Of a stretch of DNA of 63,393 bases, positions 21,981 through 33,203 are shown in pieces. This stretch comes from Odoribacter sp. OttesenSCG-928-L07 (lineage in GTDB: Bacteria > Bacteroidota > Bacteroidia > Bacteroidales > BM520). The translations under genes were made by a program, and so were the position numbers. Positions within the stretch are counted from its first letter, which is position 1; each line of letters opens with the position of its first letter. The notes under the pieces are model-generated. The model had not been told where the DNA came from, made no database searches, and saw only the letters and a list, made by a program, of their open reading frames with translations. Where the stretch lies: the NCBI GenBank assembly GCA_030265965.1, contig JAJDHA010000001.1, positions 1-63,393 on the forward strand. Direction: 5' to 3'.

Positions 21981-22020
21981 TGCTATTAAAAATTAAATTA
22001 GCTGCAAAGATAGGATTTTC

Positions 22021-22052
22021 AGTTGAAAGTTGGGAGTTGAGGGTTGAAAGTT
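22021..22052. repeat. Tandem heptamer array (left island border)
   Basis: AGTTGAA-AGTTGGG-AGTTGAG-GGTTGAA-AGTT. Confidence 0.75.
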
Positions 22053-22122
22053 TTTTGGATAAATCTTTTTTTGAGTCGATTTATTATTTTAAATTTACTT
22101 TACTGTTATAAAAAACTAATAA

Positions 22123-25100
22123 CTATTTATTTCTTTTAAAATTCTCCGCTTGTTCAAAAATTTCCACATAAACTTCATCGCGTTCCACAGGAGGATATCC
22201 GTATTCATCTAACAATAATATCAAACCAACTTTCAATGCAGATTTAATATCATCGCGTTTATTCCAATCAGGGTATTTCGCTTGTGAATCTACAAGGTTT
22301 TTTACTCCTTTAGCTAATTCAATCATTTTATCATCAGGGTAAGTAAAGTCATATTTAGTACACAATGATTTGAGTATGTCGTAAAAAGCCTTTTCTTCGA
22401 AATCAATACCCATTGCATCACCTGCGGAAAACTCTTTATGAACTTCCCAAATCAAATTGGTTAGCTGTTCCGCTATTTCTTCATAAACTTCACTTCTTAA
22501 AATATCGTTTGCATCTCGCTGATTGTATCGTTCCACCAAACTCTCCATTTTTTTACTGAAGTCGATCCCTTTCATGCGGTTTACCTTTTTCAGTTCTCCG
22601 ATTACTTTCGCCAACAGCTTTTGGAGCAGCTTGATTTTTGTATTGGGCAGCTTTATCTTATCTATCTTTGCCAAATAATCTTCATCGAAAATGTCTTGTT
22701 CAGTTTCATCTTCCGAACCCATTTTGAAGAGTTCTTCCACGCCGTCACTTATCAAAGCGTCTTTTATCATTTCCTGCACTTTGGCATTCATCTGTGCTGT
22801 ATCGGGAGCATCGCCTTTGGTCAATTTAAAAACGATAGAACGAACAGCCAAATAGAAGTGTGTATAATCTCGTTCTTCCTGCGTGAGTTGTTCGCTGCCG
22901 GTGCAAATATCATACGCTGCTTTCAGGCGTTTCACCAAATCCATAAAACGAGTTTCAAATTCTTTGGTGCACTGTATATATTCAGCGGCTTTGTTCAAAC
23001 AGTTCAATTGTTCCAATGTACCACCTGAGAAATAAGCTGAGCTATCGAATTTGTGAAACAGTTTTGTCAACAGATCCAAATGATCTTTTACCACCACAAG
23101 CGACTGGGTGATATCTTCAAAATTATCTTTGTCGCCTTTATTGTAGTGAGCCAAAGCAAGGTTCATTTGTTTCTTGATTCCGATATAATCGACCACCAAA
23201 CCTTTGTTTTTACCTTCAAACTTACGATTTACGCGCGAAATCGTTTGTATCAGATTGTGTTGTTGTATCGGCTTATCAATATAAATGGTATCGAGAAACG
23301 GCACGTCGAAACCTGTGAGCCACATATCGACCACAATGGCAATTTTGAAGTTTGACTTTTCATTCTTGAATTGTCGGTCGAGTTCTTTACGATACTCCTT
23401 TGTTCCCAATAAATCATATAACTTTTTGTCGTCGTCTTTATTGCGAGTCATCACAAGTTTGATACGTTCCATCGGTTTCAACTCACGTTTGTCTTTATCG
23501 GTAAGTTCAACACCCTCTTCCGCGAATCGGACTTCTCCCCATTCAGGACGAAGCGCCAGTACCTTTTTATAAAAATCGTAGGCGATAGTACGATTGCTGC
23601 ACACAAACATGGCTTTACCTTTTACCGAAGAACCTTCAGAAATACGATTTTCGTAGTGTGTAACAAAGTCTTCGGCTAATGCCTGCAAACGGTCAGGATC
23701 GCCAAGAATAACATGTAATCGGGCAGACTCTTGTTTACTTTTCTCTATTTGATATTCGTTTGCTCCTTCTTCGGCTACATCGTTATAATATTGTTCTATT
23801 TTTTGTAGTTCGCTGTTATTCAAAACTACTTTGGCAGCCCGTCCTTCATATACAATGCGAACGGTAATTTCATCGCGAACTGATTCGGTCATAGTATAGG
23901 CATCCATCACTTTACCAAACACATCGAGTGTGGCATCGATGGGAGTACCAGTGAATCCTACATACACTGCGTTTGGCAATGAATCGTGCAGGTATTTGGC
24001 AAATCCGAAAGTTTTGGATACACCTTTCTCGCTTATTTTTATTTTTTGGTCCAGATTGGTTTGACTGCGATGGGCTTCGTCCGAAATACAAATTACATTT
24101 TGACGGTCAGTTAATAATTCGGTATCCTCGGTGAACTTATGAATAGTGGTTAGAAAAACGCCGCCGCTTTCACGTCCTTGCAACAATTCACGCAAATCAT
24201 TTCGACTTTCAACACTAATGACATTATTGTCTCCAATGTATTGTTTGGCATTGGTAAATTGTCCGGCTAATTGGTCGTCCAAATCGGTACGATCGGTAAT
24301 CAATACAATGGTAGGGCTGCCAAAGTATTCGCTTTTCATCAATAGCCGGGTAAGGAAAAGCATTGTATAACTTTTCCCGCAACCTGTTGCCCCAAAATAA
24401 GTACCACCTTTTCCATTTCCAAACGGTTTTTGAGCCTGTTTTATGTTGTCATATAGTGCTCGAGCCGCGTAATATTGCGGATAGCGACAAACTATTTTCT
24501 CGTTCTTTTTCGATGAATCTGGAAAGTAAACGAAGTTTCGCAGTACATCCCGCAATCTATTTTTCTGGAACATACCTTGAACCAAGGTATACATAGAATC
24601 TATGCCATCCACATCTTTATTCATGCCGGCAATGCGTCGCCATGCATAGAAGAAATCGTAAGGAGCGAAAAACGAACCTACTTTGTTGTTTATACCATCG
24701 CTGATTACACAAAAAGCATTGTATTTGAACAGTTCGGGAATATCACGTTCGTAACGGACAGTCAACTGTGTATAAGCATCGTGAATGGTAGTATCTTCTC
24801 GAATGGCACTTTTGAATTCGAAAACCACCAAAGGCAAACCATTGATATATAGAATGCCATCAGGAATGCGTTTTTCCGAACCTTGAATTTCCAACTGAGT
24901 TATAAAGCGGTAGATATTTGCATCCGTTTTGTATTCAGCTTGTGGTTCAGCGACAACGGAAATTAGTTCTTCGGCAGTGTAAGTCTGATTCTCCAATCCC
25001 GAATAATCAATCAGCTGGATATAAACATCTTTATGCGTATGATCTTCACGTTTGAGAATAAATCCATCGGACAACATTTTCATAAAATGTTTATTGCTCT

Positions 25101-25329
25101 CGTACAGATCAGAAGCGGGAAGCGATTTCAGCTCCAACAGAATAGATTTGATTTCCGTATCGGTAATACCGTGATTAGCATAACGCTTTTTCAGGAAATT
25201 GCACAAATCGTCTTCTATCAGTACTTCATCAGGCTGGCGGGTAAGCGTATTGCCCAAGCAATGCGGATAACCTTCTTGTGAAAGAAGTTCGGCAAATGCT
25301 TGTTCGAGTTTGGCTTCGGTGAATTTCAT
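22123..25329 (-). CDS. hsdR: Type I restriction enzyme subunit R
   Basis: RIPDGILYINGLPLVVFEFKS nuclease motif, ATGCGKS, DEAHR, FTGTP, MWLTGFD, QTISRVNR. Confidence 0.96.
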   Translation of the reverse strand: MKFTEAKLEQAFAELLSQEGYPHCLGNTLTRQPDEVLIEDDLCNFLKKRYANHGITDTEIKSILLELKSLPASDLYESNKHFMKMLSDGFILKREDHTHKDVYIQLIDYSGLENQTYTAEELISVVAEPQAEYKTDANIYRFITQLEIQGSEKRIPDGILYINGLPLVVFEFKSAIREDTTIHDAYTQLTVRYERDIPELFKYNAFCVISDGINNKVGSFFAPYDFFYAWRRIAGMNKDVDGIDSMYTLVQGMFQKNRLRDVLRNFVYFPDSSKKNEKIVCRYPQYYAARALYDNIKQAQKPFGNGKGGTYFGATGCGKSYTMLFLTRLLMKSEYFGSPTIVLITDRTDLDDQLAGQFTNAKQYIGDNNVISVESRNDLRELLQGRESGGVFLTTIHKFTEDTELLTDRQNVICISDEAHRSQTNLDQKIKISEKGVSKTFGFAKYLHDSLPNAVYVGFTGTPIDATLDVFGKVMDAYTMTESVRDEITVRIVYEGRAAKVVLNNSELQKIEQYYNDVAEEGANEYQIEKSKQESARLHVILGDPDRLQALAEDFVTHYENRISEGSSVKGKAMFVCSNRTIAYDFYKKVLALRPEWGEVRFAEEGVELTDKDKRELKPMERIKLVMTRNKDDDKKLYDLLGTKEYRKELDRQFKNEKSNFKIAIVVDMWLTGFDVPFLDTIYIDKPIQQHNLIQTISRVNRKFEGKNKGLVVDYIGIKKQMNLALAHYNKGDKDNFEDITQSLVVVKDHLDLLTKLFHKFDSSAYFSGGTLEQLNCLNKAAEYIQCTKEFETRFMDLVKRLKAAYDICTGSEQLTQEERDYTHFYLAVRSIVFKLTKGDAPDTAQMNAKVQEMIKDALISDGVEELFKMGSEDETEQDIFDEDYLAKIDKIKLPNTKIKLLQKLLAKVIGELKKVNRMKGIDFSKKMESLVERYNQRDANDILRSEVYEEIAEQLTNLIWEVHKEFSAGDAMGIDFEEKAFYDILKSLCTKYDFTYPDDKMIELAKGVKNLVDSQAKYPDWNKRDDIKSALKVGLILLLDEYGYPPVERDEVYVEIFEQAENFKRNK

Positions 25330-25330
25330 A
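25319..25330. repeat. 12-bp direct repeat, copy at hsdR start
   Basis: GTGAATTTCATA; identical copy at 26600-26611. Confidence 0.7.
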
Positions 25331-25335
25331 CGGCT

Positions 25336-26355
25336 TTATTCTTTATCGTTATTTTCCGACTGTTCTTTTAACTCTTTGATTGCCCTATCGAAATCGCTTT
25401 CGTATTGCAACATTTCTTTTCGACGATATTCTTCAAATTCTTGTGTTGCTTTTTCTATGGCTTGTTTGTGTGAAATAGTCCCTGCATTATTGAGCAAAGG
25501 ACGGTTGCCTACCATCAGAATATTATCTAACTTTTCAATCCATTGCTGCATGGTCATAGCTTGTTGTTCTAAGGCTTGCAATTCAGCAAAATCAAGATAC
25601 TGAGATACTAACAAATTCAAGACTTGCAACTCTTTTTCCGAAAGATAGTTTTTTGCAATTTTTACATCATCGCGCGTTATGTAATCGCCTTTGAAATTGG
25701 TCATGCCCACCATGGGTTTTTCGGAATCTACCCGCTGATAAATAACCTCAGCCGCTGTATGTTGATGAGCGGCATAGTGCATTTTATTCTGAACGGTTGC
25801 AAAAAACGATCTAGTAACATCTGAGTTTGGATCATAATCAATCGCAGTAGCATAAATATCAGTTACTTGTTGATATAGATTGCGTTCGCTGGAACGAATA
25901 TCCCGAACACGTTGTAACAGTTCCCGAAAATAACGATTTCCATTCCCTTTCAATCGCTCATCGTCCATCGTAAATCCTTTTTGGATATATTCGTGCAGAC
26001 GTTGTGTTGCCCATTGCCGAAATCGTGTAGCCACTTGGGATTTCACACGATAACCGATGGCGATAATCATATCTAAATTATAGTTTGGAATATTCCGTTT
26101 TACAGAACGCTTACCTTCCGTTTGAACCTGTAAGAAATTCTTACAAGTTCGATCTTCCTGTAATTCAGCTTCTTGGTAGATATTTCGGATATGCTGCACA
26201 ATATTCTCGCGCGTTGTATCAAACAGCAAAGCAATCTGCTGTTGCGAAAGCCAAACATCTTGACCATCAAAACGGACATTGACATTTGTTATCCCATTGT
26301 CGTCTTGATAAAGAACGAACTGACTATTTGAGGGTTGAGGGTTATTGTTTGACAT
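25336..26355 (-). CDS. RhuM-family (virulence RhuM-like) protein
   Basis: VWLSQQQIALLF, YNLDMIIAIGYRVKSQVATRFRQWAT, RDIRSSER, QNKMHYA, AKNYL. Confidence 0.9.
   Translation of the reverse strand: MSNNNPQPSNSQFVLYQDDNGITNVNVRFDGQDVWLSQQQIALLFDTTRENIVQHIRNIYQEAELQEDRTCKNFLQVQTEGKRSVKRNIPNYNLDMIIAIGYRVKSQVATRFRQWATQRLHEYIQKGFTMDDERLKGNGNRYFRELLQRVRDIRSSERNLYQQVTDIYATAIDYDPNSDVTRSFFATVQNKMHYAAHQHTAAEVIYQRVDSEKPMVGMTNFKGDYITRDDVKIAKNYLSEKELQVLNLLVSQYLDFAELQALEQQAMTMQQWIEKLDNILMVGNRPLLNNAGTISHKQAIEKATQEFEEYRRKEMLQYESDFDRAIKELKEQSENNDKE
26125..26149. repeat. In-frame palindrome in rhuM
   Basis: AAC-CTGTAAG-AAATT-CTTACAA-GTT (one mismatch); encodes TCKNFLQV. Confidence 0.85.
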
Positions 26356-26459
26356 TATTGAATTATTTTAATTATACTGTACCATTTCTCTTGTTCTTCG
26401 TCCCAGATGGTACGAACTTTCTTTTCTTCGAATGGCTTTATGGATTCTTGGTTGGGCAT
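26355..26459 (-). pseudogene. Bro-N-family 5' remnant (34 aa)
   Basis: MPNQESIKPFEEKKVRTIWDEEQEKWYSIIKIIQ*, resembling the Bro-N start FEEKKVRTVWDEEQEKWYFS; stop overlaps rhuM ATG (TAATG). Confidence 0.7.
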
Positions 26460-26496
26460 GCTACACGCGGATTTATAAGTTTTGAAATAACTATTT

Positions 26497-26622
26497 CTAT
26501 TTTGGAACAGTTGCTTTATTTTCCAATCGAGCTTCTACTTTTACAGCTCCGCTGTCGGATTGGTAAAGAAGGATTTCGCCTTTTGAGGGATTGAATTTAG
26601 TGAATTTCATATTCTTCTTCAT
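26497..26622 (-). pseudogene. RhuM-family 5' remnant (41 aa)
   Basis: MKKNMKFTKFNPSKGEILLYQSDSGAVKVEARLENKATVPK*; EILLYQ..G..KVEARLE parallels QIVIYQAADGTTKLEVRLKE of 30330..31328. Confidence 0.7.
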
Positions 26623-28575
26623 TTATTGAAAATCATCTGGTAAATACTGTTTGTATTTCTCTTCAAGTAGAGATAGTGCATCTTCATTTGTTTGAAGATT
26701 TAAATTTAACTTATCTTTTATATACTTGTATTTTGATCTTGCTGTTTGAATTATGTCGCTCCAACGAAGGATAAACACATTTACATGTTCTGATTCTATA
26801 ATGTGACCATAACGTCTGTGTTGCTGCTCTACGCTTGTTTTTAATTCATCTTTAATGTCTCTTGTTAATAAAATAAAAGTCCATTTAGTTTTTTCTTTGG
26901 GAAATCGAGCATCATTACTGACTTTAGCAGCATAAGATTCTATTTGTGTTTTTTCAGGAAACCCTGCATCTTTAATTGGTCGTTTTAATTCAATTACCAA
27001 ATTTTCGTAATAATCAGCTTTTCCTAAATTGTATTGTTTCCATAGACATACATCAGGAATCGTTTCTAATTCTGAATTATCTTCAGAATTTACCACTTCT
27101 TCGAAATCATCTCGTCCTAAATCTTTTAGATATTGTTTTAGAACATTTTTAAGAGTTAAATCATCCGCACCATAAGTATAATCATCACCAAAAATCCAAG
27201 TTTCATTCACTACAATTTTGTGTAAATGCTTTCTCTCTTTTACTTTTTTTGAATGTTCAGGATCATATATAAGCAATTCTAATCCGCTTAGAAAATCAAG
27301 CCTATCTGTCACTAAACGCATAGTGTCAATCATATTCTCCAAAGAAGTTTTCTCTAACAATTCAGCCAACTCTTCTTTCTTATCGTCAGGCAATCCTATA
27401 ACTTCAGTGAGAATCTTTTGCAAACTAGCAGTGTTTGTCTCTAATGCCTCTTTAACTAAAGACAATGTTAATTTCTTGCTTATATTATCTTGTTCACTAA
27501 AAGAAGGTAGATATTCATTTATTTGAAGAGCAACTATATCAAAAACTTGGCGTTTTGCTATTTCAACATTTCCTTTTGCTTCTTCGTGATAGGGATATAA
27601 ATTTGACATTTTAAGATCTTCTATAAATTCTTTAGAATAATAGTGCAATCTTTTTCTGACATATTCTCGTGCTATTTTTTTACTTTGTTCAACGACTTTT
27701 ACTAACTCTGGATTAGCCTCAGCTAAATTTAATTCATTTTGTCTATGTAAAGATTCAATATATATTGATTGAATAAAAATTGAAATCGGCAAACTTGAGC
27801 GTATCCCAAGCGTGGCTTCAAGAAATGGAATTCCTTTTTCATTACATAAATATGTTTTCCTTTTATTCTCAAATTTCCATTCTATTATTTTAATTTCAAA
27901 TTTATACGTCAGGTTATTAATATCTGTTTTTATTATTTCCGTATATTGATTTTTTATAAGGTTGTCAAAATCTAATTTTTTATTGTTAATATATATTTGA
28001 AAATATGGATAACTTAAGTAATACAAAGCAAATCTTTCTTCTAGTTCTCTGAAATTATCTTTTAAAAAAACTTCATTTGCAATTTTATCATTGATATTGT
28101 TGATTGTGACCTTAAATCCCTTTTTCATGCCATTAACAGTCTCAATGTCGCTTAATTTAGGATTTCGAAGACTATTTTTATCAATAGCAACAGTAAAATG
28201 ATTAGAAAAATCATCTATGATCTGATAACTATCGAAATGCACCAGATCTCCAAGAGCTAAAGCTTTATACCTGCCTTTTCCTTCCTTGCCATGATAAACC
28301 CTTCCTGCAGGACTAACATTATTTTGTTTCTTATCTGAGCCTCCAAGTTTTTGAAAGACATCTTCTGCTAATTGATAAGATAATCCAATACCATCATCTT
28401 CTATAGATATGTACTCGTATTTGCCAAGTACATTTTTCTCAAAATTTATTCTTATTTCATTTGCATCAGCATCAAGAGAATTCCAAATTAACTCTGAGAT
28501 AGCATTGATTCCATTAGATCTTGTTAAAGACTCAATGTGATCCTGCTGGACAATTATTTCTAATTCCTTTGACAT
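26623..28575 (-). CDS. GHKL (HATPase_c/MORC-like) ATPase fused to C-terminal PD-(D/E)xK nuclease
   Basis: ELIWNSLDA (N-box), DDGIG (G1), GKEGKGR (G2); C-terminal IPDVCLW...VIELKRP. Confidence 0.8.
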   Translation of the reverse strand: MSKELEIIVQQDHIESLTRSNGINAISELIWNSLDADANEIRINFEKNVLGKYEYISIEDDGIGLSYQLAEDVFQKLGGSDKKQNNVSPAGRVYHGKEGKGRYKALALGDLVHFDSYQIIDDFSNHFTVAIDKNSLRNPKLSDIETVNGMKKGFKVTINNINDKIANEVFLKDNFRELEERFALYYLSYPYFQIYINNKKLDFDNLIKNQYTEIIKTDINNLTYKFEIKIIEWKFENKRKTYLCNEKGIPFLEATLGIRSSLPISIFIQSIYIESLHRQNELNLAEANPELVKVVEQSKKIAREYVRKRLHYYSKEFIEDLKMSNLYPYHEEAKGNVEIAKRQVFDIVALQINEYLPSFSEQDNISKKLTLSLVKEALETNTASLQKILTEVIGLPDDKKEELAELLEKTSLENMIDTMRLVTDRLDFLSGLELLIYDPEHSKKVKERKHLHKIVVNETWIFGDDYTYGADDLTLKNVLKQYLKDLGRDDFEEVVNSEDNSELETIPDVCLWKQYNLGKADYYENLVIELKRPIKDAGFPEKTQIESYAAKVSNDARFPKEKTKWTFILLTRDIKDELKTSVEQQHRRYGHIIESEHVNVFILRWSDIIQTARSKYKYIKDKLNLNLQTNEDALSLLEEKYKQYLPDDFQ

Positions 28576-28582
28576 GTTTTTT

Positions 28583-29776
28583 TTAATTTTTTATTGTTGC
28601 CATCTTCGAAAGAAGTAGCGATTGTAATTCTTTTAACTTTTTATCTTGTTCAGCAAACAGCTCTATATTTTTATCAAGAATAGATATAGTGTCTTCAAAT
28701 AGTTGAATAGTTTTATTGTTCGGAATGATAATTTTACTCTGATATAACGCCTCTTTTGTTATTGAGCCAAATATTGTTCCTTCGTCATTAGACACATCAA
28801 ATTCATTTCTAATTGCTAACATCAAATGAAAAAGAAATGAATTGTGTTTTGTTTTGCTATTCAAAGAGGCAATACCTCGACCAATTGCACAATCATTCTT
28901 TGTTATATTCAAGTCTCCTACTGGAGCTCTCACACTCATTAATATATCTCCCTTTTTAGCTCTTTTTTTAGGTTCAGTAGTGTAAGTTGTTATATCAGGA
29001 AATCTTATTCCAAAGTCTGTTCGCCCCTGATAAAATATCATCCCATTTCCTTCGGAATTATACGACTCACCTTCAGGTGACTGTCCCATAATGATATTTG
29101 CAATATCCGACAAAGCTCCCACTCTCCACCCCCTCGGAATCTCCCCCAACTCACTATCCACCATTTCGCCACCCGAACTTTTATACGACTTCCCGTCTTC
29201 ATTTGGAAACTCAAAATCCACAAACCACTGCTTGTAAATAGCCTGTGCAGTTTCTTCGAGTTTTTGTATCAGTTGGTTGTTGAGGTCTATACGACGTTGC
29301 ACGGCATTGTATTCGGCTACTATCTCGCGTTGTTTTTCGGGAGAGGGAATGGGGAGTTCAGTATTGCACAATTCTTCCCAATCAAACATTTCCCTAACGC
29401 TTCCATGACTTCTGAAACGAGCATATCTGTCAAACTCGGGACGCCGAAACCACATCATTAGATACTCAGGAAGAAGGCTTTCTGTGTCAGTAATTTCAAA
29501 AACAGTATATGCTTGAGAAACTAATGCCGTACCTCCATTCGCATACATTGCAATACCAATTTTGTCTCCTCTTCGAGAAGTGTCTGGGATATATGTGAAT
29601 TGAGTGTTTCTTACTGTTTTGTATTTTGTAAAGTCAGTTCCAACAGTATTTGCTACAGATTTAATAAATTCTTTTGACACAGAAACACCAAGTAGATTGT
29701 CTTCCCGTCCTTCAAGATTCCGCACATCCACTTCCCGAATATAATCACCCAATCGTTTATAATTGCTCATTCTCAT
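28583..29776 (-). CDS. hsdS: Type I R-M specificity subunit S
   Basis: Two TRDs around conserved LPIPSPEKQREIV...LEETAQAIYKQWFVDFEFP...ELGEIPRGW; ends LKELQSLLLSKM. Confidence 0.93.
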   Translation of the reverse strand: MRMSNYKRLGDYIREVDVRNLEGREDNLLGVSVSKEFIKSVANTVGTDFTKYKTVRNTQFTYIPDTSRRGDKIGIAMYANGGTALVSQAYTVFEITDTESLLPEYLMMWFRRPEFDRYARFRSHGSVREMFDWEELCNTELPIPSPEKQREIVAEYNAVQRRIDLNNQLIQKLEETAQAIYKQWFVDFEFPNEDGKSYKSSGGEMVDSELGEIPRGWRVGALSDIANIIMGQSPEGESYNSEGNGMIFYQGRTDFGIRFPDITTYTTEPKKRAKKGDILMSVRAPVGDLNITKNDCAIGRGIASLNSKTKHNSFLFHLMLAIRNEFDVSNDEGTIFGSITKEALYQSKIIIPNNKTIQLFEDTISILDKNIELFAEQDKKLKELQSLLLSKMATIKN

Positions 29777-30323
29777 CTCTCAATTTTATGAACTCATTTT
29801 CTATTTCTTCTATCGTTGGTAAGCTATCTTTCAATTCTTTGGGCAAATGCTCGGTAATTTGAAATTCGCTTACTCCCATAGGTTTGTTTATATCGCGTAA
29901 TGAAAACTCGACTTCAATGCTATTCTTTTCGCGGCACAGTAAAATGCCAATCGTTTGTTGTCCGACAAAAGCAAATCCTTTACCTAATTCCAATGGAATT
30001 TTTGTAACGGGTTGTTGCACAATTTGTCCAACAGGTTGTTGGATTAATTTATCGTGATAGAAAACATAGAATTGCTTGCAATAAAATAAGTTACTCCTTG
30101 ATAAACCTTTCATGTCAGGAAATTCTGATTGCAGATCTTTAGCCGCCTGCTCTATCAGTTTATTACCCCACACGTTCTCTTTTTCGGAAATCATTTTGCC
30201 TAATTCCCAATAAAATTCAATCAATGCAGAATTGACAGCAATAGCTGCCTTAATTTGCGTTGAACGAATTTTGGTTTTTAGCTCTAAAATCCATTTTTTA
30301 TAACTGTTATCGGATATATTCAT
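29757..30323 (-). pseudogene. Internally deleted YhcG/DUF1016 protein (ORF still open)
   Basis: N-domain AVNSALIEFYWELG...WG...DLQSEFPDMKGLSRSNL joined to LELGKGFAFVG and then TIGILLC...LPTIEEIE; central region and nuclease motif missing. Confidence 0.75.
30003..30049. repeat. Tandem pair of in-frame hairpins in YhcG remnant
   Basis: TCCAACA-GGT-TGTTGGA (30027-43) and degenerate TGTAACG-GGT-TGTTGCA (30003-19), period 24 nt; encodes IQQPVGQI-VQQPVTKI. Confidence 0.75.
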
Positions 30324-30329
30324 ACCGCC

Positions 30330-31328
30330 TCAATTGTTTTTATTAATCAGATTGACTACTAATTTTACCATCACATCTTTCTCTTCCGAGCGGCTTTCGG
30401 CAATCATCAGGGTTAAAGCTACTAATGTATTGTTTTCAATCAACCTTGTTCCATCGGGCTTGTAAAGGATTCCGTTTTTCTCTAAAAACCAAAGGAACAG
30501 AAAAGCTGCAATCCGCTTATTCCCATCGCTGAAAGAATGATTTTTGGTTACTAAGTACAAGAGCATTGCCGCTTTTTCTTCAATACTTGGATAAAGTTCT
30601 TTACCATCGAATGTTTGATAAATGGTATTGATTGAGCTATGAAACGATCCGTCTTTTTCATTACCAAACAAGGAGCTTCCGCCAAATTTTTTGTGTAATA
30701 TAGAAATCGCCTCTTTTGCATTTTCGTAAGTGGCTCGAAAATCCTCTTTTGTAGTGGTTTGTTCGATACTCAACTGTTTATAGTCATATTTATCCAATGT
30801 ATCTAAAGCATACGTGTAATCACTTATCACTTGCAAGAGACCTGTAGCTTCGTCTGCCGATAGTTCTTTGCTTTGCAAAACATTCGATAGTAGTTTGACG
30901 GTTAGTTTCAGGTCGTTGTATTGTTGCAATTGTATCTTGTTATTAACGGCATAGCCTTTTACAAGATACTCTTTTAAAATACGGTTTGCCCAAATGCGGA
31001 ATTGAATTCCTCTGCTTGACTTTACTCGATAACCAACAGACAAAACCATGTCCAGACTATAAAATTCTATATTTCTTTCAACTTCTCGATCCCCTTCTTT
31101 TTGAACTGTCGCAAAATTTGCGACAGTTGGAATTTCAGCCAACTCTTCCTTTAAAGCATTATTAACATGCTTCCCTATTGTTTTAACATCCCTATCAAAC
31201 AATTCAGCCATCTGCTGACGATTGAGCCATACGGTTTCTTCTTTCAGCCTCACTTCCAACTTTGTAGTCCCATCGGCAGCCTGATAAATAACTATCTGAT
31301 TATCATCAACCATCTTTTCATCTTTCAT
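30330..31328 (-). CDS. RhuM-N + Fic/Doc fusion protein
   Basis: ETVWLNRQQMAELF, YSLDMVLSVGYRVKS..GIQFRIWAN; Doc-type motif HSFSDGNKR. Confidence 0.9.
   Translation of the reverse strand: MKDEKMVDDNQIVIYQAADGTTKLEVRLKEETVWLNRQQMAELFDRDVKTIGKHVNNALKEELAEIPTVANFATVQKEGDREVERNIEFYSLDMVLSVGYRVKSSRGIQFRIWANRILKEYLVKGYAVNNKIQLQQYNDLKLTVKLLSNVLQSKELSADEATGLLQVISDYTYALDTLDKYDYKQLSIEQTTTKEDFRATYENAKEAISILHKKFGGSSLFGNEKDGSFHSSINTIYQTFDGKELYPSIEEKAAMLLYLVTKNHSFSDGNKRIAAFLFLWFLEKNGILYKPDGTRLIENNTLVALTLMIAESRSEEKDVMVKLVVNLINKNN
31104..31128. repeat. Perfect in-frame palindrome in rhuM-fic
   Basis: AACTGTCGCAAA-A-TTTGCGACAGTT, 12-bp perfect arms; encodes TVANFATV. Confidence 0.9.
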
Positions 31329-31343
31329 TGTTTAGCCTCTTTT

Positions 31344-32954
31344 TTATTCAATACCATATCCCAATTCTTTAAACACTTTAATCAATTCCAGTTTCGATTG
31401 TTCTTCGGCTTGCAACAATTCTTTAAACTCGGCTTGTAATGTTTTCATCTTTTCGTCGAAGTCGATATTCTCATCACGATTCTTAAAAGCAATGTATTTG
31501 CTCGGAACTAAGGAAAAATCTTTTGCTTCTACTTCTTCATGCGAAGCTGAATAGCAATATTCAGGGATATTGAAAACTTCACGTTGAGACGCACGGCCGT
31601 GTTGAGACGCACGGCCGTGCGTCTCTATCGTAGCGGTCTGCCAATCGTGATAGGTTGCTGCAACCCGTCTGATATCTTCTATTGAAAATTGAGTAAACTT
31701 CTTCTCAAAGGGTTCGCCCATTTGGCGCAGGTCCATAAACAAGATTTCGCCTTTGCGGTGGCGATAGTTGCGGATTTCATCGCCTACCTGTACGGTTCGT
31801 TGGGTCTTATTTCGGTTCAATATCCAAAGTGTAACGCTAATATCGGTTGTATAAAACATATTTCGAGGCAAAACCAAAATCGCTTCCACCAAATCATTTT
31901 CAATCAGTTTTCGGCGAATTTTATATTCTTCACCTCCACCGCTTAATGCACCATTGGCAAGAATAAAACCTGCTACGCCGTTTTCAGAAAGTTTGCTTGC
32001 CATATTGAGAATCCAGCCGTAATTGGCATTGCTTTTGGGCGGCACATCGTAGCCACGCCAACGCGGATCGTCAATCAGTTCATCTTCGGCTCGCCAGTCT
32101 TTTTGGTTGAATGGCGGATTTGCCATAATGTAATCGGCTTTCAGGTCTTTGTGTTGGTCGTCTGAAAACGTATTGGCGGCTTTCGCTCCCAAATTGGCGG
32201 AAATACCCCGAATGGCAAGATTCATTTTTGCCAGTTTATAGGTGGTATTGGTGTATTCCTGTCCGTAAATGGAAACTTCGCGTTTGTTACCGTGATGACT
32301 TTCGATAAATTTAATGGATTGTACAAACATGCCACCTGAACCGCAAGCAGGATCGTAAATGATACCCTTGTAAGGTTCAATCATTTCGGCAATCAGGTTT
32401 ACAATACTTTTGGGCGTATAAAACTCTCCTTTCCCTTTTCCTTCCGCTAAAGCGAATTTTGAAAGGAAGTATTCATATACACGTCCAACAATATCCTGCT
32501 CTTTATCTTTTAGGGTGTTTATCTCACTGATTTCATCAATCAACGAAGCCAGTTTGGATGATTCCAAACCTAAGCGAGAGAAATAATTATCGGGTAATGC
32601 CCCTTTCAGGCTTTTGTTGTTTTTCTCTATGGTATGGAGAGCAGTGTCGATAATCAGAGCCAAATCGTCTTGTTTGGCTTTTTCTTTGATGTAATTCCAA
32701 CGTGATATTTCTTCGAGAAAAAACACATTGCTCATGTTGTAGAATTCGGGCATCTCTACGTACTTCTCTTTTCCGTCGGCAATGAGCTTAGATCTGTGTT
32801 CCTCGAACTTATCACTGACAAATTTCAGGAATATCAACCCCAACACCACATGTTTGTATTCCGAAGGCTCAACACTTCCACGCAATTTGTTTGCCGACTC
32901 CCACAGACTTACCTCTATTGGTTTTTCTTGTTTTTCATTTGCTTTTTTAGCCAT
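31344..32954 (-). CDS. hsdM: Type I R-M N6-adenine methyltransferase subunit M
   Basis: LWESANKLRG, GEFYTP, YDPACGSGGMF, ANPPFN; promoter TACCTTTG at 33080-33087 (minus). Confidence 0.96.
   Translation of the reverse strand: MAKKANEKQEKPIEVSLWESANKLRGSVEPSEYKHVVLGLIFLKFVSDKFEEHRSKLIADGKEKYVEMPEFYNMSNVFFLEEISRWNYIKEKAKQDDLALIIDTALHTIEKNNKSLKGALPDNYFSRLGLESSKLASLIDEISEINTLKDKEQDIVGRVYEYFLSKFALAEGKGKGEFYTPKSIVNLIAEMIEPYKGIIYDPACGSGGMFVQSIKFIESHHGNKREVSIYGQEYTNTTYKLAKMNLAIRGISANLGAKAANTFSDDQHKDLKADYIMANPPFNQKDWRAEDELIDDPRWRGYDVPPKSNANYGWILNMASKLSENGVAGFILANGALSGGGEEYKIRRKLIENDLVEAILVLPRNMFYTTDISVTLWILNRNKTQRTVQVGDEIRNYRHRKGEILFMDLRQMGEPFEKKFTQFSIEDIRRVAATYHDWQTATIETHGRASQHGRASQREVFNIPEYCYSASHEEVEAKDFSLVPSKYIAFKNRDENIDFDEKMKTLQAEFKELLQAEEQSKLELIKVFKELGYGIE
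31583..31625. repeat. REP-like palindrome with tandem partial duplication inside hsdM
   Basis: Perfect 22-bp palindrome GAGACGCACGGCCGTGCGTCTC (31604-25); 18-nt unit GTTGAGACGCACGGCCGT repeated twice. Confidence 0.85.
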
Positions 32955-33140
32955 TTCTCACATCTATTCTTTATGATCAAAAAAATATACTAATTTACAA
33001 TCTTATAACAATAATATTAAAGTTTCCACGAGAGACTGATATTACTATTGCAAGCTGAATAATGAATTTAATTCGGCACCAAAGGTAAGAAATTTTATTG
33101 AATTTTTAAGCATTGCTCCTATTTTACATTGTGTCAAAAA

Positions 33141-33173
33141 CAATTTTCAACTTTCAACCCTCAATTTTCAATT
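33141..33173. repeat. Tandem heptamer array (right island border)
   Basis: CAATTTT-CAACTTT-CAACCCT-CAATTTT-CAATT; 33149-33164 is the exact reverse complement of 22037-22052. Confidence 0.75.
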
Positions 33174-33203
33174 AAATAAACTATCTTTGCAAAAAATTTT
33201 TCG

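Follow-up and report, generated by a model that had tools for sequence, protein, structure and literature searches.

What keeps a 25-bp palindrome at the same codon position in two paralogous genes when the sequence of its arms differs between them? The question is raised by a stretch of 63,393 nucleotides from Odoribacter sp. OttesenSCG-928-L07 (contig JAJDHA010000001.1; hereafter the window), which carries two genes of the RhuM type, rhuM and rhuM-fic, with 44% identity across 124 residues. In rhuM the palindrome lies at 26125-26149 on the minus strand (AACCTGTAAGAAATTCTTACAAGTT on the plus strand), spans codons T70-V77 and the last base of codon 69, and has 11 of 12 arm pairs complementary, the odd pair being T.G on the coding strand. 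The homologous site in rhuM-fic, at 31104-31128 on the minus strand (AACTGTCGCAAAATTTGCGACAGTT on the plus strand), is a perfect palindrome (12/12 pairs) covering the codons T-V-A-N-F-A-T-V. Sequence and protein alignment confirm what the initial annotation had reported, namely that the two palindromes occupy aligned codons (TCKNFLQV and TVANFATV) with arms that are complementary and different. The annotated length of 25 bp also stands, and the element is better drawn as 12+1+12 than in the proposed 3+7+5+7+3 layout, with pair 11 often unpaired and pair 12 fixed by codon constraints. When the whole 63-kb window was scanned for 12+1+12 palindromes with at least 11 pairs, four were found, both RhuM-gene sites among them, compared to a mean of 0.67 in 30 Markov shuffles of the window.

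The homologous 25 nucleotides were located in other RhuM genes by protein alignment, with pairing ignored. In 80 genome contigs (many bacterial phyla and one archaeal metagenome-assembled genome) together with the window, all 83 sites had 8-12 of 12 pairs. With 80 metagenome loci and another four copies from the genome that holds the window included, 167 of 167 mapped sites scored 8-12 (1 at 8, 14 at 9, 46 at 10, 73 at 11 and 33 at 12; three tblastn rows had been removed beforehand), as did 78 of 78 mapped sites from 80 viral contigs (two rows removed). The arms themselves vary widely (for example TGTAAG, TGTCGG, GTCAAG, ATTAGG, CACAAG and GTTGCA). Among 102 distinct rows, 92.1% of cells were paired compared to 74.9±0.6 in shuffled data, and none of 500 shuffles reached as high; 218 cells had changed on both sides (62.9±6 in shuffles), and such changes were seen at 10 of the 12 pairs. 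Controls slid along the alignment gave 25-47% pairing. The outermost pair is A-T in all 102 rows, with both bases at third codon positions, and pair 10 shows a preference for G-C (87/102). Pairing does not extend contiguously beyond the element: in the 83 sites, outward pairs 1-11 were complementary in 0-33%, and the 49-61% complementarity at outward pairs 12-14 is attributed to conserved flanking codons. The alignment of these sites establishes that the palindrome is conserved. E. coli K-12 dinD, a more distant relative, was also considered as a model for the element and rejected; its best palindrome has 9 of 12 pairs and is far from the N-terminus.

Two results show, at the level of sequence comparison, that selection acts on the palindrome as DNA. 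First, the centre of the palindrome is a third codon position and third positions therefore pair with third positions, four pairs to a site. In 56 unique sites these pairs were complementary in 205 of 224 cases, compared to 77.1±6.7 (maximum 102) in 2000 synonymous shuffles in which codons were resampled from each gene's own usage. Second, ORF6N genes have an in-frame 25-bp palindrome at a fixed position (consensus TTGAGGTCRCAAwTTGYGACCTCAA; loci L118-L147 and L309-L388), which scored at least 9/12 in 31 of 33 mapped sites from Bacteroidota genomes and in 77 of 80 from viral contigs. One DNA core, GGTCGCAAATTGCGACC, is shared by two ORF6N subtypes that read it in different frames, as LRSQIATS in one and as ELVANCDRF in the other, the latter shifted by one base (L134, L141, L142, L144, L146 and contig C57 of the source genome). 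Judged from these alignments, the ORF6N DNA element is conserved through a frame change of the protein. Selection on nucleic acid rather than on the peptide, which the initial annotation had suspected, is thus borne out, and the codon-shuffled null it called for places the homologues far above the shuffles. It should also be noted that GC-rich genomes retain rare AT-rich codons at the palindrome.

Sorting the sites by arm type also sorts a protein motif encoded 16-23 codons upstream of the palindrome (TTQQNIS with CACAAG, TTKQNIS with GTCAAG, TTPQNIT with TGTAAG, S-RTNVVEH with TGTCGG). In rhuM this segment is codons 47-55 (T-T-R-E-N-I-V-Q-H; 26191-26217, minus strand), which encode the turn and the start of a predicted recognition helix; in rhuM-fic it is codons 46-54 (R-D-V-K-T-I-G-K-H; 31167-31193, minus strand), the recognition-helix segment that matches the TGTCGCA arms. 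We measured coupling as the mutual information with arm class divided by the column entropy. In the genome set, residues 47-51, 53 and 54 gave values of 0.72-0.88, whereas the remaining variable columns, among them residues 56-69 and 78-94 immediately next to the palindrome, gave 0.42-0.62. The pattern was replicated in the metagenome set (0.74-0.92 versus 0.37-0.70). Of 28 metagenome sequences, 24 carried the arm hexamer predicted by a helix key derived from the genome set (43 keys were unseen), and a key from the genome and metagenome sets combined predicted 15 of 17 viral sequences. As a control for relatedness, pairs of sequences were binned by background identity; in every bin, pairs with the same arms shared the helix key far more often, and in the bin of 80% identity or higher it was shared by 175 of 176 same-arm pairs compared to 8 of 59 different-arm pairs.

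The covariation is base-specific. Residues 49 and 53 couple to bases 5-6, and residues 50, 54, 47, 48 and 51 to bases 8-10. Residue 54 tracks base 9: Glu with G9 (41/41), Arg with C9 (15/15), Lys with C9 (11/11), and Leu, Gln, Ile, Met or Tyr with A9 (108/108). In rhuM-fic the residue at this position is Lys and base 9 is C, as in all 11 other Lys cases. At residue 49, Lys goes with G5 in 48 of 50 and T6 in 49 of 50 sequences, and Gln with C5 in 26 of 28 and A6 in 28 of 28. Gln to A, Arg or Lys opposite G and Glu opposite C are classic protein-DNA contacts, and the observed preferences agree with them; coupling at i, i+4 and i+1, i+5 is what a helix lying in the major groove would give. Base-specific covariation between arms and helix residues is established by these alignments, and as covariation it indicates that recognition-helix residues specify the half-site. 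The initial annotation had placed the specificity determinant in the peptide encoded by the palindrome itself, which the covariation does not support; the determinant is instead the recognition helix encoded 16-23 codons upstream. Its broader proposal fares well: on the covariation, the gene very probably contains a binding site for its own product, and the site varies together with the specificity. Six RhuM-type genes are present in the source genome (two on contig C1 and one each on C24, C39, C53 and C99), and helix motif and palindrome are different in each, the pattern to be expected if cross-reaction between paralogues is prevented.

An AlphaFold2 model of residues 1-135 of RhuM (78-row alignment; predicted local distance difference test score (pLDDT) 81; predicted template-modelling score (pTM) 0.72) comprises two short strands, helices at 38-44 and 49-61, a beta-hairpin of strands 71-80 and 83-92, and two further helices, 94-101 and 107-132. 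The domain is thus predicted to be a helix-turn-helix (HTH) followed by a beta-hairpin wing (71-92). The coupled residues fall at the start of the second HTH helix, since the model places residues 49-61 there, and the palindrome codes for the first strand of the wing. In a wide structural search the best matches were winged-helix DNA-binding domains at modest Z-scores of 5-7, among them 3ez9 (Z 7.1), the DNA-binding domain of pSK1 Par (8csh, Z 7.0), ParA2, the DdrC N-domain, TFE-alpha, RacA, Xis and relatives of MerR. A homodimer prediction scored 0.71 compared to 0.00 for the best control, with runs agreeing in at least 78% of contacts and a partner pLDDT of at least 72; the mark applied was reached by 20 of 30 known homodimers and by 1 of 23 single chains. 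The predicted dimer is symmetric (116:116 and 120:120 contacts), is formed through residues 94-125, and leaves helix and wing free. The blocks of bases that would be read, 5-10 and 16-21, have their centres 11 bp from each other. This is roughly one turn of the DNA helix and the usual spacing for an HTH dimer. No RhuM gene without the N-terminal domain was found in 301 Bacteroidota genomes, where nearly all matches over approximately positions 1-250 of the RhuM profile were in frames of 314-392 amino acids; in a homologue search with residues 66-339, the 120 matches listed were of 308-360 amino acids and nearly all full length. The PADLOC RhuM model, of 277 positions, aligns from residue 66.

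Taken as a whole, we infer with a probability of roughly 0.65 that the palindrome serves as an intragenic operator in the form of double-stranded DNA, recognised by the N-terminal winged-helix domain that the same gene encodes. The domain would bind as a two-fold symmetric dimer, with each recognition helix reading arm base pairs at approximately 5-10. Because helix and palindrome are within about 90 nucleotides of each other, they would be inherited and exchanged as one specificity unit. Two loci, L005 and L016, look mosaic when compared with L001-L015: their flanks match close relatives, but helix and palindrome resemble genes from distant phyla. From sequence, this suggests that the module is exchanged as a unit. 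A further locus, L144, has two RhuM-type palindromes in tandem (950-974 and 1004-1028) in an open frame of 117 amino acids, with peptides VVRESRTT and SVKKFLTV.

Several observations weigh against an operator bound by its own product. The sequences are related, so the counts overstate the number of independent events, and helix and palindrome are only some 50-75 nucleotides apart, so co-inheritance contributes to their association; residues between and beside them show low coupling, which speaks against linkage alone without excluding it. Matches to the predicted fold do not exceed Z 7.1, Foldseek against the PDB gave no match at E 0.001 or better, and a sequence search of the PDB with RhuM returned chance-level rows only. 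Pfam does not recognise the N-terminal domain, and residues 1-69 have no ORF6N (PF10543) or Bro-N match at E 10 or better; in one source, close homologues are named 'Bro-N domain-containing protein'. Some sequences that belong to the same helix class restore pair 7-19 by a change that replaces Leu with Phe, and this is explained more simply by direct arm-to-arm pairing or by template-switch correction. Finally, repression by one roadblock some 200 bp into a gene may be only weak.

If the dimer does bind, what would it do? The rhuM palindrome is at +207 to +231 of the open reading frame, where an operator would neither overlap nor adjoin the promoter. No further half-sites were found near rhuM or rhuM-fic, and a search of the whole genome with the 12-nucleotide half-sites of all six RhuM copies, allowing one mismatch, gave extra exact matches only in unrelated genes. 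Five short pieces from three public metatranscriptome runs, all available as contigs, carried no information on transcript ends at the palindrome. As there is no second site near either gene, looping to the promoter is unlikely and an elongation roadblock is the simplest regulatory effect. Granted binding, we tentatively favor promoter-independent negative autoregulation of this kind, at somewhat less than even odds. Bound to its site, the dimer would halt RNA polymerase near +207, so that less full-length mRNA would be made for the toxic effector domain and for genes further down the operon, such as hsdR. A roadblock would work behind any promoter and would therefore suit passenger genes within restriction-modification (R-M) operons, such as those described in PMC3710099 and PMC9881135.

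A bolder extension, which we consider a long shot, is that the palindrome serves as antidote and sensor of a one-gene defence system. The roadblock would limit the cell to roughly one dimer for each copy of the gene, and the effector (RhuM, Fic or a PD-(D/E)xK nuclease) would be inert while its dimer sits on its own gene. A phage that degrades or remodels host DNA, or loss of the island, would remove the only site, and the freed effector would stop the cell. Different helix/site pairs would keep paralogous copies independently guarded. If true, the same principle would apply to RhuM, ORF6N and DUF1016 genes.

Among readings other than a linear operator, recognition of a folded form by the same winged-helix domain survives best, and we regard it as unlikely. 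Here the domain would recognise a cruciform, or a single-stranded DNA hairpin whose stem is one half-site duplex, so that arm pairing is itself required. This would cover both the helix-arm code and the compensation seen where members of one helix class differ, which includes the Leu-to-Phe changes that a synonymous Val change forces. The mismatch spectrum also fits DNA in being symmetric: in pairs 1-10 of 105 unique sites, the non-complementary cells are 22 G.T, 22 A.C and 26 others among 1050. However, sequences of the THK class keep a C.T or C.C mismatch in mid-stem across several phyla (22/81), because the perfect complement would need a TGA stop, and four sequences keep A.G at pair 7-19. 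Ready cruciform extrusion is not expected of a 12-bp arm with a 1-nucleotide centre, and the predicted symmetric dimer suits a linear palindrome.

A hairpin in the mRNA or an antisense RNA, acting in pausing, processing or stability and unread by protein, would account for the strong compensatory variation, synonymous sites included, and for the fixed position in the gene, with co-inheritance as the sole link to the helix. An RNA stem should favor one wobble type, and the equal counts of G.T and A.C show no such bias. An Rfam search of 22000-33200 at E 10 or better gave no match at either palindrome. These two results disfavor an RNA stem on either strand, and the helix-to-base mapping is position-specific and nearly deterministic, with only background coupling for the residues that adjoin the palindrome. 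The RNA hairpin is thus unsupported, and we consider it improbable.

The initial annotation had also raised a role as a recombination or mobility site, which might serve module exchange between paralogues or insertion of passenger genes into type I R-M operons. The mosaic genes L005 and L016, with their foreign helix-plus-site modules, would fit, as would the enrichment of RhuM and DUF1016 genes beside invertible hsdS genes described in PMC9881135. Against this, full symmetry with a 1-nucleotide centre gives neither polarity nor an even-length crossover core, paralogues in one genome differ in sequence, and the element is in mid-gene rather than at a cassette border. We found nothing that points to such a site, with no systematic test for an adjoining recombinase, and a recombination function seems very unlikely. 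Least credible is a neutral, self-perpetuating palindrome in which template switching during replication copies arm changes across, which would yield Watson-Crick compensation without wobble bias and the amino-acid changes dragged along by the other arm, but does not explain why the outer pair, at a synonymous position, is always A-T, why pair 10 favors G-C, why GC-rich genomes have rare AT-rich codons here, or why the arms are coupled to the helix. Template switching may nevertheless help compensation to happen quickly.

Similar palindromes are found in other passenger genes. The source genome (1.67 Mb in 117 contigs, 74% complete) holds 45 such palindromes, with RhuM and ORF6N genes accounting for five each and DUF1016_N genes for six. 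The ORF6N-gene sites are at C30:95471-95495, C30:96090-96114, C65:6528-6552, C57:5431-5455 and C99:2823-2847. In ORF6N genes of both frames, one helix residue predicts base 9 (Glu-G9, Gln-A9, Arg-C9; mutual information 1.39 of 1.50 bits), which by alignment is the same rule as for residue 54 of RhuM. Homology of the RhuM N-domain to ORF6N is suggested by this residue-to-base rule, the position of the palindrome and a shared motif (NFATVQkEGdR in RhuM, QFATSSwGGtR in ORF6N) only.

In DUF1016_N (YhcG) genes, a palindrome just before the SWSH motif scored at least 9/12 in 27 of 30 genes, compared to a background of 53 in 2000 (loci L088-L117). These genes have one to three in-frame 25-bp palindromes, and a second, upstream one occurs only in a subfamily (3/30). 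By inspection of the 27 sequences, the palindrome appears to follow a GF-x-x-x-NL helix. The six sites in the source genome are at C27:7231, C41:24008, C41:68589, C66:3729, C69:4504 and C107:8121. In the window, the DUF1016/YhcG gene has two overlapping weak palindromes (30011-30047, minus strand; 9/12 each) at the 'site 2' position of DUF1016_N. One other 25-nucleotide palindrome of the genome, AGAGACAGGGCAaTGCCCTGTCTCT, is present in nine copies (C2:39391, C23:3796, C28:21823, C41:6989, C46:14669, C55:606, C78:4345, C95:277 and C102:1891). The two copies that were inspected are both outside long open reading frames, and the copies look like a family of repetitive extragenic palindromic (REP)-like or terminator-like repeats.

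The two RhuM genes of the window belong to a type I R-M operon on the minus strand, which reads hsdM (31344-32954), rhuM-fic (30330-31328), DUF1016/YhcG (29757-30323), hsdS (28583-29776), a GHKL-type ATPase (26623-28575), rhuM (25336-26355) and hsdR (22123-25329). In rhuM the predicted winged-helix domain spans approximately residues 10-132, and the match to Pfam PF13310 (Virulence_RhuM) covers residues 70-314 (363.9 bits; curated cut-off 33.7); by PADLOC profile the gene belongs to the candidate defence family PDC-S05 (E 8e-144). In rhuM-fic, a RhuM-type N-terminal domain and the start of the RhuM domain (residues 68-176; 88.7 bits against PF13310) are fused to a Fic/DOC domain (PF02661; residues 211-282; 46.8 bits, cut-off 24), and the PADLOC profile is PDC-S23 (E 1.5e-142); the NCBIfam model DOC_P1 gave 35.3 bits, under its cut-off of 38.65. 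The DUF1016/YhcG gene between rhuM-fic and hsdS looks internally deleted, since its 188 amino acids match DUF1016_N positions 1-92 and YhcG_C positions 109-157. The GHKL-type ATPase (HATPase_c_3; 650 amino acids), between hsdS and rhuM, resembles the paraMORC genes that PMC3710099 describes in R-M operons. Near the 3' end of hsdM, at approximately 31577-31626, there is a GC-rich 18-nucleotide tandem duplication (peptide HGRASQ twice) that forms a near-perfect 24-nucleotide palindrome, compared to 32% GC in the rest of the genome. A symR match, weak and below threshold (25.1 bits), overlaps this stretch.

No mention of these palindromes was found among the papers listed for RhuM, ORF6N, DUF1016/YhcG and intragenic operators, with most subscription journals and supplements outside the search. 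Several known systems are comparable. In lacZ, lacO2 is an intragenic auxiliary operator. According to PMC3711431, LacI bound to O3, which lies at the end of lacI, acts as a roadblock and so limits full-length transcripts of its own gene. Both are cases of a dimeric HTH repressor on a palindromic operator inside coding sequence, as we propose for RhuM. Unlike in LacI, the proposed RhuM operator is at a fixed codon position near the codons of the recognition helix and diversifies with that helix, is conserved as a palindrome across phyla and related families, and has no promoter-proximal partner site. Another palindromic binding site that is conserved within the coding sequence of its own protein is parS in parB/spo0J, and partition-protein DNA-binding domains (8csh, 3ez9) are among the fold matches of the RhuM N-domain. 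However, parS is nearly invariant and present at several chromosomal places, whereas RhuM sites are single and hypervariable with matching protein changes, and RhuM has neither a ParB fold nor a partner ATPase. In plasmids of the pT181 family, the origin is inside repC, and the few specificity residues that set closely related Rep proteins (HUH nicking initiators) apart match divergent inverted repeats. Here a protein recognises a cis site within its own gene, with matched specificities, as is proposed for RhuM, but RhuM, ORF6N and DUF1016 proteins have no HUH nicking domain and no replication role was seen. The C proteins of R-M systems act through C-boxes. The type II toxin-antitoxin system YefM-YoeB is autoregulated through a palindromic operator, according to PMC1802561. 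C proteins and such antitoxins are small HTH dimers that act on palindromes to autoregulate toxic or restriction genes, with operators that differ between systems, much as we propose for RhuM. Their operators, however, are in promoters and their DNA-binding protein is a separate gene, whereas in RhuM the DNA-binding domain, the effector and the proposed operator share one open reading frame.

These data indicate that conserved palindromes in coding sequence can be protein-binding sites rather than RNA structures, and that the two can be distinguished from sequence alone. The hundreds of natural helix/site pairs (for example Glu54-G9, Arg/Lys54-C9 and Lys49-G5T6) are a ready table of protein-DNA recognition, useful for studies of specificity and for repressors without cross-reaction. 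Among candidates for defence by a single gene, RhuM (PDC-S05) is very common, and a preprint (10.1101/2024.09.26.614923) reports a member that lowered T7 and T5 plating approximately 1000-fold in E. coli B. For the control of this family, an operator built into the gene is a concrete and testable hypothesis. A helix and an operator in one short stretch of gene would make regulation compact and portable, carried between operons, and, if true, this would explain how passenger genes work without promoters of their own.

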